Source: Magallana gigas
Lineage: Eukaryota
DNA length: 64,000 bases
Assembly (NCBI RefSeq): GCF_963853765.1
Contig: NC_088861.1
Location: 21,420,281-21,484,280 of the forward strand
Direction of reading: 5' to 3'
The position numbers were made by a program, and so were the translations under genes. The notes beneath the pieces are model-generated. The model was given only the letters and a program-made list of their open reading frames with translations, did no database searches and was not told where the DNA came from. Shown here in pieces: positions 37,022 to 39,831 of the stretch (position 1 is the first letter of the stretch; each line of letters starts with the position of its first letter).

Positions 37022-39382
37022 GTTCTCTGCAATGCATTGTGGTACGTCACTAATCATCATCAAACAATAAATGATGCCTCACTAAGGAAACAAACTCTAC
37101 TGCCAGTTCCAAATATCTTTAATGACTACGATGGATATAACGAAGTAAAAAGGAAAAAACTAAAATCCTGTCCATTGTCTGCATCACTTCTTGATAGCCA
37201 TGCCCAGGCTCTATATTCTTTACTGATGAAGCCTGTGGTCAATAGTTCAGTCTCTTGGAAACAAGGTGCAGAAGATATTAAGCAGTTAGCAGAATGTTTT
37301 ACTGCTTACAAAGAATATCTAGTTGTTCAGAATAAAACTGCCCAGGAAAATCAGAGTAAGTTGTATCCTGTTCGGACCATTGACAAAGAAGCCACCATTG
37401 AACACAGATATGGTAATTTGTCAGGTCAAATTAGAGAGAAATATGTGGACATAAATGAAGCTGTAACCAGTGCTGGAATTATGGCACCAGTGGTTTTTGA
37501 CGAATACAAACATTTGGATAAGCCTTTTGAAAGTAACTTGGAGCGATTCCGCTATTTTCAAGATCTTCAGTTGAAATGTCCTGTTGATATCATTCGTTTT
37601 AGTCCTGGTGGATCGTCAGTCTCAACAGTCTGTATAGTCCAAGTTTCCAATCAAAATAGATCAAACGCTGAAATGTTGACACAAGGTGCTCGATTACTAC
37701 AAACTGTCAGACCAAATTTGAAAGAATATCATACACGAGCTCAGAGACGATTGTTTAAAGAAAAACTGAAAAATGTTGCTTCTGTATTACCATCTGTTGC
37801 AAATCTCATTTATCAAGAGCTGGCATTGGATTTTTCTGCAGCAGAACACCCTGTAACCCAAGAGAGACTTAGACTTATTTTTCTTGGTCAGAATGACCTC
37901 ATTCCTGATTTAAGAGTGCTCAACCCAGGAAGACCAAACAACAAATTTGATGTTTTCTTTGAAACCTTATCAAAAGAGGTAGAAAAGATTACAGCTGCAG
38001 ACGATAGACGGCATGGGACAGCACATTTATCAGAATTTATCTCATTGGAAGAAATGGTTGAGAAAACAGCCAAATCTTGTCCAGAGGGCACTGATATTCC
38101 ATCAAAAAGCTTGGTGAGGTTACAATTTGCCCCTAGGAACCCTTATGCAAGGTCTGCATTGAACTTTACAGGAAAGATTGATGTGCAGTATAAAGTGCAA
38201 AGAAGACAGCTTCGCATTGACCATCCAGATGATCACTATTGCAATGCACAATTCAGATATCTTAAAGAGATGGCAATTGAGATGAGAGAGCATTGTGCTT
38301 TATTGTTCTGTGACGATAAGGCAAAAGTGAGTATTGGAGAACCTGGAAGTCCAGTTTCAACAGGTGTGAGGGGGAAGAAAACCATAGTGCCATCAAGTTC
38401 CACTTTAGTATCTTTAGATCATGACATGACTAAAGCATCCTTGACCCCCTCAGTTATTTTGCACTGTAAAATTCCTGGTAGCATTAATGACTCATTTGTC
38501 CGTGGTCAAGTAACAGTGACAGTTAATGATTCTGTTTTTCAAATGTCATCTCCGTTTCGTCATGCAGTTTCCATTATAAAAGCCTTTGAACAACAGGGAC
38601 ATTTTCCTTATACATTGCTTAAATTCACAGATGGTGGAACTGATCAGAGAAATACACTTGAAAGTGTGAAGTGTGCTTCAATTTGTGTATTTAAGGAAAT
38701 GAATCTTGACATGATGATATTGGCAAGATGTGCACCCGGTCACAGTTATGTTAACCCTGCTGAGAGAGTTATGAGCATTCTAAACTTGGCTCTGCAAAAT
38801 GTAGCATTAGAACGTAAAGAGTCAACAGAAAAAATGAATAAAGTTCTGAAAAGCTGCAACAGTATGGCAGATGTAAGAAATCTTGCTGAGAAGACTCCAG
38901 AAGTAAAAACTGCATGGATAGAATCAGTTGAGCCAGTTGCATCAGTGCTCCGTAACCGTTTCTTGAGATTGAAGTTAAAAGATGATCCAGTAAAGGCCCT
39001 AGATCCAGTTAGTGACCAAGAAATTGATATTTTGAAGCGCCATCTTAGAGAACTTTTCCCAAATCTTGATTTGAAAAAATTACAAAAAGTGCACACAAGT
39101 AAAGTTGAGAGTTATCAGAAGTGGATTGAAACTCATTGTAGAAGTAGACAATACACGTTTCAAATAAGAAAATGCAGAGATGAGAACTGTTGTCTTCCTC
39201 CACGCTTGAGAGATGAGCAAATGCAGTGGTTACCTGATCCAGTTCTAAATGAGACTAAAGATCATTACAAATCCTACAATGAAGTCAAAGGAACAGAAAC
39301 AAATGAATCAGACAGACCTTCTTTAAAAGCAAAACCGATCAAAGAAAAGAAACTGAACCTTAGAGCTACTGTGAATGTATAA
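37022..39382 (+). CDS. Gene A exon 3, a long intronless exon of 786 codons + stop (VLCNALWYVTNHHQTINDASLRK ... NLRATVNV*). Spliced product is about 967 aa with no recognisable domain; Cys-rich near the C-terminus. Possibly TE-derived.
   Basis: Acceptor CTTATTTCAG| at phase 0. It is the only long ORF in the window (792 codons in the track). Confidence 0.7.
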   Translation, partial: VLCNALWYVTNHHQTINDASLRKQTLLPVPNIFNDYDGYNEVKRKKLKSCPLSASLLDSHAQALYSLLMKPVVNSSVSWKQGAEDIKQLAECFTAYKEYLVVQNKTAQENQSKLYPVRTIDKEATIEHRYGNLSGQIREKYVDINEAVTSAGIMAPVVFDEYKHLDKPFESNLERFRYFQDLQLKCPVDIIRFSPGGSSVSTVCIVQVSNQNRSNAEMLTQGARLLQTVRPNLKEYHTRAQRRLFKEKLKNVASVLPSVANLIYQELALDFSAAEHPVTQERLRLIFLGQNDLIPDLRVLNPGRPNNKFDVFFETLSKEVEKITAADDRRHGTAHLSEFISLEEMVEKTAKSCPEGTDIPSKSLVRLQFAPRNPYARSALNFTGKIDVQYKVQRRQLRIDHPDDHYCNAQFRYLKEMAIEMREHCALLFCDDKAKVSIGEPGSPVSTGVRGKKTIVPSSSTLVSLDHDMTKASLTPSVILHCKIPGSINDSFVRGQVTVTVNDSVFQMSSPFRHAVSIIKAFEQQGHFPYTLLKFTDGGTDQRNTLESVKCASICVFKEMNLDMMILARCAPGHSYVNPAERVMSILNLALQNVALERKESTEKMNKVLKSCNSMADVRNLAEKTPEVKTAWIESVEPVASVLRNRFLRLKLKDDPVKALDPVSDQEIDILKRHLRELFPNLDLKKLQKVHTSKVESYQKWIETHCRSRQYTFQIRKCRDENCCLPPRLRDEQMQWLPDPVLNETKDHYKSYNEVKGTETNESDRPSLKAKPIKEKKLNLRATVNV

Positions 39383-39831
39383 CCACGTCAAATCCTGTGA
39401 ATGATATTTTTGAAGAAGAGGAATTTGAAGTACCAACTCCTGATGCGCACCTTTGCATTACACAAAATGCAAGAGCTATAGTTGAATGTGTTGAGTGTAG
39501 AAAGCCACGTGTAGTGTACAGTCATCACAAACTGACAGAGAGGCAAATAATGTCTTTCACTATTTCAATCAGTGAATATGAATACACATGTGGAAGTCCT
39601 TTATTGCCACCCACCAACTCAATGTCTAAAAAAGTTATGAGCAGACTTAATATTAACTGTGACTCACATGTTGAATTAGCCTATTATGGAAGCGGCTTAG
39701 GCCAAGTAGATATCTGCTCTGTTTGTGCTGAACCAGAAGCCGATACAAATGCAGAATTAACAAGAATAGAATTCCAGAGTCCCCCGCCGGTCAAGCAGTA
39801 TAATAGTATCGAGTCTATCGACCAAGGCTGA
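39364..39831 (+). CDS. Out-of-frame continuation ORF (frame shifted relative to exon 3) encoding a Cys-rich tail (..CITQNARAIVECVECRKPRVVYS..CGSPLLPP..CDSHVELAYY..CSVCAE..). Its last ~25 codons lie inside the family-B element 5' arm.
   Basis: A 9-bp direct repeat CTGTGAATG occurs at 39369 and 39395. Removing the 26 bp between them fuses this ORF in frame to exon 3. Confidence 0.35.
   Translation, partial: SYCECITTSNPVNDIFEEEEFEVPTPDAHLCITQNARAIVECVECRKPRVVYSHHKLTERQIMSFTISISEYEYTCGSPLLPPTNSMSKKVMSRLNINCDSHVELAYYGSGLGQVDICSVCAEPEADTNAELTRIEFQSPPPVKQYNSIESIDQG

Follow-up and report, generated by a model that had tools for sequence, protein, structure and literature searches.

The locus described here raises the question of why a long open reading frame of Magallana gigas ends where it does, immediately ahead of a second frame that can be joined to it. 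In the window, by which we mean the whole 64,000-nt stretch of DNA that was analysed (NCBI RefSeq assembly GCF_963853765.1, contig NC_088861.1), a 792-codon ORF (37004..39382) is ended by the TAA at 39380-39382, and an alternative frame, which begins MNDIFEEEEFEVPTPDAHLCITQNARAIVECVECRKPR, is open for 144 codons (39397-39831). The first-pass annotation had described two copies of the 9-mer CTGTGAATG, at 39369-39377 and 39395-39403, and had proposed that the 26 bp between them shift the frame. The pair is present as described, and the removal of 26 bp does join the 792-codon and 144-codon frames. The final 73 nt of the downstream frame (39759-39831, 24 codons and the stop) lie inside a repeat element, as had also been noticed, and the arm of this element, TAACAAGAATAGAATTCC, was found at 39758 and 58574 and at no third place.

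The origin of the frameshift becomes apparent upon comparison with intact copies of the same sequence, which are 99.5-99.8% identical to the window. One of these, the contig L001, aligns with window 36726-39760 at a DNA identity of 99.77% and with one gap, which is listed below together with the stop codon that follows it.

39378-39379, plus strand: TA dinucleotide insertion (GTA[TA]ACC), frameshifting, the sole gap when 3035 bp are aligned to L001
39380-39382, plus strand: premature TAA in the frame shifted by the TA insertion

The sequence GTAACC is found at this site in nine of the nine intact contigs (L001-L009), a count that arises by construction and is silent on allele frequency, since these contigs were picked by exact match to intact proteins; none of them extends past the terminal inverted repeats (TIRs) described below, and they are either alleles of the locus or other copies. 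The TA falls in a disordered linker ahead of the C-terminal domain of the encoded protein, shifting the frame and leading to the TAA at 39380. We infer that the insertion is genuine, as opposed to an error of assembly. Exact look-ups returned no record of the truncated 792-aa product of the window or of its 144-aa chimeric product, and the lesions are therefore without independent confirmation.

The interrupted gene would consist of three exons and encode a DDE transposase with a length of about 1120 aa, in which an N-terminal region precedes the RNase-H-like catalytic core and a Cys-rich domain forms the C-terminus. The true start of its third exon is the splice acceptor at 37022, as opposed to the GTG at 37004 with which the ORF opens.

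34152-34564, plus strand: exon 1, N-terminal region (MAATVAATSLLAIRVKK...), located by a tblastn match of 95% identity to P0122 (A0A8W8JZB5 of M. gigas), GT donor at 34565
35089-35218, plus strand: exon 2, located by tblastn and by the spliced Logan contigs L002-L004, acceptor cag/T at 35086-35088
35448-35460, plus strand: alternative, frame-shifting micro-exon of 13 nt (AGCAGGAAAAAAG), bordered by ag and gt in the window and seen at the exon 2/exon 3 junction of the cDNA-like contigs L002-L004
37022-39377, plus strand: exon 3 part a, frame intact, including the DDE core
39380-39758, plus strand: exon 3 part b, frame lost, corresponding to the conserved Cys-rich domain at the C-terminus (P0001 residues ~795-918)
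40918-41014, plus strand: exon 3 part c, displaced original C-terminus KKQYKTILPLCKTCEGNGRVPFIQRPYGKKN and stop, matching the C-termini of P0001 and P0121

The spliced contigs L002-L004 indicate that intact copies are transcribed, and the 13-nt micro-exon may act as a toggle that decides whether the product is full-length or truncated at its N-terminus. When the frames were joined, the resulting protein retrieved 131 homologues. P0001 (949 aa), whose cluster includes C. angulata XP_052708941.1 and one M. gigas entry, is 99% identical and continuous over the junction (...RATVNVTTSNPVNDIFEEEE...), and ends ...AELKKQYKTVLPLCKTCEGNGRVPFIQRPYGKKN. The outcome that the first-pass annotation had named as refuting it was not observed, which is in its favour: homologues do not stop at the position of the TAA at 39380, and the Cys-rich frame downstream of it is strongly conserved. 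The 37 homologues with this conserved frame range from molluscs to amphioxus; C828, C831, K833, R835, C862, G863, C885, E890, C904, C907 and P927 are invariant in all of them, and C929 and C932 are conserved in at least 90%. The Cys-rich domain is predicted with a pLDDT of 83-90. One protein, from Mytilus galloprovincialis, shares 87% identity with that of the oyster, a similarity that hints at horizontal transfer.

The conserved C-terminal domain is interrupted a second time, by the repeat element into which the 144-codon frame runs. The element and its modules, all of which are oriented antisense to the gene, are as follows.

39759-40917, minus strand: Cg_HINE-type Helentron non-autonomous element, 1159 bp, absent from L001-L009; its boundary can slide by at most 2 nt within an A-run
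39779-39789, minus strand: 3' subterminal inverted repeat (subTIR) of 11 nt, GTCCCCCGCCG / CGGCGGGGGAC, pairing with 40907-40917 at 100% complementarity
39816-40784, minus strand: tandem array in the centre, 5.6 copies of a 172-bp unit and a 343-bp higher-order period (TRF)
40792-40880, minus strand: microsatellite, TRF periods 8, 16 and 24, unit GACGCACG, GTCC/GTGC-type on the element strand
40889-40917, minus strand: 5' subTIR and complementary inverted repeat, forming the hairpin GTCCCCCGCCG CAACG CGGAGCGGGGAC (-11.8 kcal/mol, z -3.4)

The repeat units of the 172-bp and 343-bp array match at 92% and 95% (TRF), and the copies were confirmed by BLAST with the monomer. At the place after the 3' subTIR where a 3' palindrome is expected, there is only a 4-bp GAAT/ATTC stem, which is not significant (-1 kcal/mol, z -0.09). 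A second copy of the element is located at ~58575-59190, and the ends of both copies fit 5'-TGTCC...CTTGT-3' inserted at T^T. The contigs L001-L009 provide the empty site, GCAGAATTAAAAAAACAGTAC: at window 39760 they continue directly with 40918, overlapping by 2 nt, and read ...GAATTAAAAAAACAG. The target is an A7 run on the plus strand (T7 on the element strand), and the net gain amounts to 1159 bp and calls for no duplicated bases. The element, which presumably moved by Helentron rolling-circle transposition, would thus have landed antisense in the A7 run encoding the Lys-Lys of ...AELKKQYK..., without a target-site duplication (TSD), and would have pushed the last 31 codons 1.16 kb downstream. 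The earlier suggestion that an element insertion had replaced the original C-terminus is therefore borne out for the insertion and mistaken as to the replacement, since the 31 terminal codons and their stop survive unbroken directly behind the element, at 40918-41014, where they form the end of the ORF 40622..41014 and are 99.4% identical to L001.

In addition to the TA and the insertion in exon 3, the large intron contains what would be the third lesion of this copy.

35652-36725, plus strand: second, unrelated HINE-like element of 1074 bp, absent from L001 and L005-L008, the genomic contigs that span this intron junction

This element has a 5' hairpin (AGGTCTTTCCACCT/AGGTGAAAGACCT; -10.3 kcal/mol, z -5.35), a 3' subTIR and a palindrome with a 9-bp stem, and its insertion site is TT^T.

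The gene and both insertions are enclosed by a pair of terminal repeats.

34003-34005, plus strand: left TSD, TTA (flanks ..ATATTA/GGCC and GGCC/TTAACA)
34006-34033, plus strand: left TIR, GGCCAAAAAAAAAAATATGTGTGTTTCC, 28 nt, a perfect inverted repeat with 41349-41376 (E 7e-11)
41349-41376, minus strand: right TIR, pairing with 34006-34033
41377-41379, plus strand: right TSD, TTA (flank GGCC/TTAACA)

As detected, the perfect inverted repeat spans 34005-34033 / 41349-41377, and the TIR motif occurs at these two places only in the window. Homologous TIRs and subterminal motifs flank related genes in Mytilus edulis (L011) and Branchiostoma belcheri (L012), where the duplications are TTA/TTA and TAA/TAA, respectively, and the TIRs are thus conserved across three species, including the oyster of the window. 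Around the gene of P0003 (contig L010), the search for TIRs gave only interspersed repeats inside an intron, and the downstream flank is broken by an LTR retroelement. A full-text literature search with the TIR strings returned nothing relevant. The first-pass annotation, which was concerned with the stop codon, had overlooked that the entire gene is a transposase within a TIR-bounded transposon. As features of the lineage we also record that a DDE transposase of ~1120 aa without a Pfam model occurs together with a conserved zinc-like C-terminal domain, and that oysters, mussels and amphioxus differ very little in the TIRs and subterminal motifs.

Window 34006-41376 is thus very probably a copy of a ~7.4-kb oyster (Crassostrea/Magallana) DNA transposon, very young but dead and decayed by three lesions. 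The lesions by which it departs from intact copies are directly visible, as are the empty site, the TIRs with their TSDs, the protein fold and the conservation of the downstream frame, and the transposon presumably moves by DDE cut-and-paste.

Several other explanations have to be weighed against this one, three of which concern the frameshift itself. The duplication of 26 bp between the copies of CTGTGAATG, which would have shifted the frame and recently truncated the gene, accounts for the restoration of the frame by a 26-bp deletion, and the 9-mer does occur three times in the window, as compared to an expectation of 0.54. In the intact copies, however, both 9-mers are present, spaced by 24 bp (...AATG TAACCACGTCAAATCCTGTGAATGAT...) and in frame as …ATVNVTTSNPVNDIFEEEE…, encoding VTTSNPVN, and the 85%-identical homologue P0002 has the homologous VTQENPEI at this place. 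The stretch that separates the 9-mers is not repeated in the sequence that follows them, and the TA is the only difference from intact DNA at the site as well as the sole indel in 3 kb. In a first-order Markov simulation, 9-mer pairs spaced 10-30 nt in 2.8 kb had a chance mean of 0.58 and P(>=1) = 0.34, and the single pair is therefore not beyond chance. Both copies of the 9-mer (aCT GTG AAT G / cCT GTG AAT G) are native coding sequence, present in intact copies, and unrelated to the frameshift. We thus regard the duplication as extremely improbable, and it was rejected upon alignment with L001-L009. The probability of a programmed frameshift, in which the -1/+2 frame change would be a recoding site for making the C-terminal domain, is close to nil: the two frames do overlap no more than a few codons from the stop, but all close and distant homologues have one continuous frame, no slippery heptamer precedes the TAA, and the shifted frame would enter the HINE and miss the conserved C929/C932 end. 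The continuity of the homologues and the lack of a heptamer led to the rejection of this candidate.

An assembly or polishing indel at 39378-39379, with the true locus open up to the HINE insertion, is unlikely as judged from assembled sequence, even though no public contig is recorded that encodes exactly the truncated 792-aa product. Long-read indel errors concentrate in homopolymers and long dinucleotide runs. The context of the TA, GTATAACC, is neither of these, and the copy independently holds two large transposable element insertions and is thus already decaying; moreover, public data contain other frameshifted variants of the gene, such as P0125, which ends ...AELKKTVQNCITAMQNM. The remaining explanation concerns the gene as a whole, which might be a cellular and possibly domesticated oyster gene, so that the window would show either a host gene that has been disrupted or a null allele that is polymorphic. 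The gene bears the NCBI annotation 'uncharacterized protein LOC128183823', undergoes splicing and transcription, and its relatives sit among ordinary host genes in M. edulis and B. belcheri. Nevertheless, the gene lies between perfect TIRs with 3-bp duplications, homologous TIRs enclose the M. edulis and B. belcheri relatives at unrelated loci, the protein has a DDE transposase fold, and there are many paralogues per genome (at least six in Mya arenaria) with a patchy phyletic distribution, all of which makes a cellular gene very improbable.

On the reading as a decayed transposon, the interval 34.0-41.4 kb should be masked in annotation as nested transposons and not presented as a truncated host gene, and the "stop-codon frameshift" is without regulatory meaning, reflecting ordinary mobile-element decay. 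The locus is a clean case of a satellite-carrying Helentron-type element in coding sequence, and the exact empty site that is available for it is useful for studying how tandem repeats are spread through oyster genomes by such elements. The family to which the host transposon belongs, which is young, intact elsewhere, transcribed and missing from Pfam, might be of modest specialist interest.

Among known systems, the element in exon 3 most directly recalls the Helentron-associated interspersed elements (Cg_HINE) of Crassostrea gigas (Repbase Helitron-N*_CGi; Vojvoda Zeljko et al., 2020, PMC7492417), with which it shares the order of modules on the element strand: an 11-nt 5' subTIR with a complementary-IR hairpin, a GTCY-type microsatellite, satellite-like repeats of ~170 bp, and an RF of about 57 bp that holds the 3' subTIR. 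Cg_HINE elements typically have a GTCY-type microsatellite in their left flank and insert at T-rich or TT sites without a TSD (PMC7492417), as the element described here does in a T-run. Its 3' palindrome, unlike that of Cg_HINE, is very weak, and, differing from the Cg_HINE description, it sits in the coding sequence of another transposon. The likeness to Cg_HINE, of which 11 families are published, is one of architecture, the level at which the comparison was made.

The placement of the host transposon starts from its protein, which has a mariner/integrase-like DDE core fold, nearest to Tc1/mariner. Searches with hmmscan gave nothing consistent in Pfam for the two ORFs or for 37 family members, even with the threshold relaxed to E <= 10, and the same 37 members had no match in NCBIfam; the superfamily assignment is therefore built on the TSD, the TIRs, the fold and the description in the literature. 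A profile search against PDB sequences gave chance matches only (~E 0.03, to a CRISPR ring nuclease), as did a tblastn search of bacterial plasmids with the catalytic core, and no bacterial relative was found among bacterial plasmids or bacterial and archaeal genomes. Two "MAG" contigs from the scan of bacterial and archaeal genomes were discarded as clearly eukaryotic (microsatellites, exon structure).

PIF/Harbinger (PHIS) shares with the oyster element the 3-bp TTA/TAA (TWA) duplication and TIRs starting with GGCC, and such TIRs are known in mPing/Pong. It differs in that the oyster family has no DDE_Tnp_4 or Plant_tran signature (37 members, E <= 10) and has a single three-exon gene between the TIRs, with no Myb/SANT/MADF-like second ORF; where PIF/Harbinger combines a transposase of ~400 aa with a Myb/MADF-like ORF, the oyster element has one protein of ~1120 aa. 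Tc1/mariner transposases (Mos1, SETMAR, Sleeping Beauty) and retroviral integrases have an identity of 8-13% to the oyster protein, which is three times the Tc1/mariner size, is associated with a TWA and not a TA duplication, and carries the conserved Cys-rich C-terminal domain in addition. We assign a small though real chance to the host element being an essentially uncharacterised, currently active lineage of TWA-targeting DNA transposons, which, if not Zator by sequence, would amount to a new superfamily-level group.

The host transposon is best described as Zator-like, a membership that we infer from the TSD, TIRs, fold and literature description and not from sequence homology. No member matched PF07592 or an IS family (37 members, E <= 10), and Zator-1 was compared by its description. 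PF07592 corresponds to bacterial TP36, and the Zator superfamily (Bao et al., 2009) is said to stem from it. Zator belongs to the IS630-Tc1-mariner group (PMC7386202), and Zator-1 of Branchiostoma has a 3-bp TSD of TAA/TTA (PMC12905397). With Zator the oyster element shares this 3-bp TAA/TTA duplication, TIRs of about 30 bp (28 nt and perfect in the window), the occurrence in B. belcheri and a DDE core whose fold is nearest to Tc1/mariner.

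Starting at 37004, an open frame runs for 792 codons to a TAA at 39380-39382, and the first-pass annotation had described its surroundings correctly: the 9-mer CTGTGAATG is present at both 39369 and 39395, an alternative frame beginning MNDIFEEEEFEVPTPDAHLCITQNARAIVECVECRKPR is open from 39397 to 39831, a 26-bp deletion joins the two frames, and within the window the 18-mer TAACAAGAATAGAATTCC occurs at 39758 and 58574 only. The 9-mer repeat is not remarkable in itself; when the 2.8-kb coding region was simulated as a first-order Markov chain, at least one 9-mer pair spaced 10-30 nt arose in 34% of trials. 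With the joined protein as query, 131 homologues were found, many of which span 96-100% of it in one continuous frame. The top match, P0001 (an intact oyster homologue of 949 aa, 99% identical), reads ...KKLNLRATVNVTTSNPVNDIFEEEEFEVPTPDAHL... at the junction, where VTTSNPVN is encoded by the 24 bp separating the two 9-mers; since P0001 is continuous here, these 24 bp are native coding sequence. An 85%-identical homologue has VTQENPEI in this place.

The cause of the frameshift is therefore not the 26-bp duplication initially proposed, as intact copies differ from the window by TA alone at 39378-39379. This is the sole gap in the alignment of L001, the genomic contig encoding P0001, to window 36726-39760 (99.77% identical; window AATGTA[TA]ACCACG), and GTAACC is also found in eight further contigs encoding intact proteins. 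Because the contigs were picked by exact match to intact proteins, they define the intact state, and the absence of TA is uninformative on how common the window allele is; none of them reaches past the TIRs, and they may be either allelic to the window copy or paralogues of it. Outgroup homologues show the intact state to be ancestral. That the TA is an assembly error is unlikely. The TA falls in a linker predicted to be disordered (pLDDT <50, residues 778-810 of the AF2 model), and exact look-ups of the window's truncated and chimeric products returned no record.

Orthologues ending at the TAA with no conservation beyond it would have refuted the first-pass reading, but homologues do not stop there, and the downstream Cys-rich frame is conserved across 37 aligned homologues, whose sources are bivalves, gastropods, a priapulid, a hemichordate and amphioxus (C828, C831, K833, R835, C862, G863, C885, E890, C904, C907 and P927 invariant; C929 and C932 conserved at >=90%). 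Intact proteins end ...ADTNAELKKQYKTVLPLCKTCEGNGRVPFIQRPYGKKN, and the window frame departs after AEL, continuing TRIEFQSPPPVKQYNSIESIDQG to a stop. An element insertion replacing the C-terminus had also been suggested; the insertion is present, but the original end (KKQYKTILPLCKTCEGNGRVPFIQRPYGKKN and stop) was displaced to 40918-41014 and not lost. As L001-L009, the contigs of intact oyster copies, all pass from window 39760 straight to 40918 with a 2-nt overlap (empty site GCAGAATTAAAAAAACAGTAC), the window carries a net 1159-bp insertion at 39759-40917, within an A7 run coding Lys-Lys. P0125, another public variant of this gene from the P0001 cluster, ends ...AELKKTVQNCITAMQNM, its frame having shifted within that A7 run. 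The inserted family-B element comprises:

Modules of the family-B element
Minus strand: 5' subTIR and complementary IR, 5'-TGTCCCCCGCCG CAACG CGGAGCGGGGAC, hairpin -11.8 kcal/mol (z -3.4)
40792-40880, minus strand: microsatellite of GTCC/GTGC type
39816-40784, minus strand: tandem repeat, 5.6 x 172 bp, higher-order period 343 bp
Minus strand: right flank of ~57 bp with the 3' subTIR, 11-nt pair 39779-39789 / 40907-40917 perfect

This module order is that of Cg_HINE, Helentron non-autonomous elements of C. gigas which insert at TT/T-rich sites without target-site duplication (PMC7492417). A second copy lies at ~58575-59190, and both insertions are consistent with 5'-TGTCC...CTTGT-3' at T^T; the 3' palindrome expected of Cg_HINE has a stem of only 4 bp. 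The downstream frame ends inside the element; the "5' arm" first described there is, in HINE terms, the 3' flank of an antisense element.

The gene itself is a transposase inside a transposon, bounded by a perfect inverted repeat (34005-34033 / 41349-41377) whose motif has no other occurrence in the window, with ends TTA|GGCCAAAAAAAAAAATATGTGTGTTTCC ... GGAAACACACATATTTTTTTTTTTGGCC|TTA.

Features of the host transposon and its relatives
34152-34564, 35089-35218 and 37022 onward: three transposase exons
35448-35460: micro-exon AGCAGGAAAAAAG, 13 nt, canonical ag/gt flanks
35652-36725, plus strand: HINE-like element of 1074 bp in a transposase intron, unrelated in sequence to family-B
34006-34075 / 41307-41376: TIR and subterminal regions, window
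7801-7871 / 14659-14729: the same, L011 (M. edulis)
6618-6688 / 13625-13695: the same, L012 (B. belcheri)

The M. edulis homologue P0016 (54% identity; L011) sits between SNF2-related and EP400-like host genes and is flanked by repeats of the form GGCCTAAAAAAAAA(T)ATGTGTGTTTCCGGTAAC, next to each of which stands a TTA; around the B. belcheri homologue the repeats are GGCCTA..AAAATGTTGTGTTTCC and the adjoining triplet is TAA at both ends. These copies have subterminal motifs in common (left CCCGACCGACCC; right AATAGGGTAGGTAGGT, reverse complement). Oyster, mussel and amphioxus TIRs and subterminal motifs are nearly identical despite transposases only ~50-54% identical. The protein matches none of the Pfam and NCBIfam models, TP36 (PF07592) among them. 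An RNase-H-like core is predicted by the AF2 model of P0001 (mean pLDDT 76; high-confidence stretch 410-770), with the invariant D437/D438 at the end of its first strand, D543/D547 after its fourth, and E587 where a helix begins.

The intron element, missing from the genomic contigs covering the site (L001, L005-L008), has full Helentron/HINE anatomy: a 5' subTIR AGGTCTTTCCACCT with IR (hairpin -10.3 kcal/mol, z -5.35), two ~300-bp repeats of 76% identity, and a 3' subTIR followed by the palindrome CTAATTGTTCGAGAACAATTAG with a 9-bp stem, inserted at TT^T. Three independent cDNA-like contigs (L002-L004) contain the micro-exon; these are the spliced contigs that show intact copies to be transcribed. 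With it included, exon 3 no longer continues the frame of exons 1-2, and the outcome is a 195-aa N-terminal product or, by initiation at an internal ATG, the 954-aa 'isoform X2'; if it were skipped, the frame would be kept and the full-length transposase made, which is the M. edulis arrangement. The micro-exon may thus be a splicing control of the transposase.

Because it is 99.5-99.8% identical to intact copies outside its lesions and has perfect TIRs, the window copy is young. Its derived lesions are three, namely the TA insertion, the 1159-bp HINE in coding sequence and the 1074-bp HINE-like element in the intron. Since each coding lesion would by itself be enough to remove some or all of the conserved Cys-rich domain, the copy is almost certainly non-autonomous. 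The locus is an ordinary nested-transposon graveyard of the oyster genome, and a poorly catalogued, apparently active host transposon family is of minor side interest.

P0012 from Mytilus galloprovincialis shares 87% identity with the oyster transposase, as against 54% for P0016. Several transposase lineages coexist, and 87% is more than the divergence of oysters and mussels would lead one to expect; either horizontal transfer or contamination is possible. This eukaryotic transposase also occurs in two contigs filed as bacterial, L013 (JBEVXT010000519.1, 'Sedimenticola sp.' MAG) and L014 (CBDBZY010000051.1, 'MAG: bacterium', 482-kb contig), the latter of which also has an exon-like ORF upstream as well as (GT)n microsatellites and is therefore eukaryotic DNA mis-binned as bacterial. 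The window itself carries further repeats:

Further repeats in the window
4211-5588, 26990-28496, 42775-44423 and 52172-53311: arrays of 166-176 bp, consensus ...CCATTGTGGCCCCACCCTACCCCCGGGGGTCATGATTTTCACAACTTTGAATCTACACTACCTGAGGATGC...
41729-42072, just downstream of the transposon: tandem repeat, 161 bp x 2.1

The arrays resemble the Cg170/HindIII satellite that Cg_HINE elements carry, and the window is dense in elements of this kind. A ATCGAACTTGACC motif is common to the 161-bp repeat and the 172-bp family-B monomer, and the former may represent a HINE repeat family related to the latter.

PIF/Harbinger elements have the TSD and GGCC termini in common with the host transposon, but do not fit it in transposase type and second ORF. 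A 2026 paper that cites Bao et al. 2009 (PMC12905397) describes amphioxus Zator-1 with 33-bp TIRs and a 3-bp TAA/TTA duplication, the latter as in the host transposon. From this description and the placement of Zator beside Tc1/mariner (PMC7386202), we call the host element Zator-like, a putative assignment drawn from its TSD, TIRs and fold.
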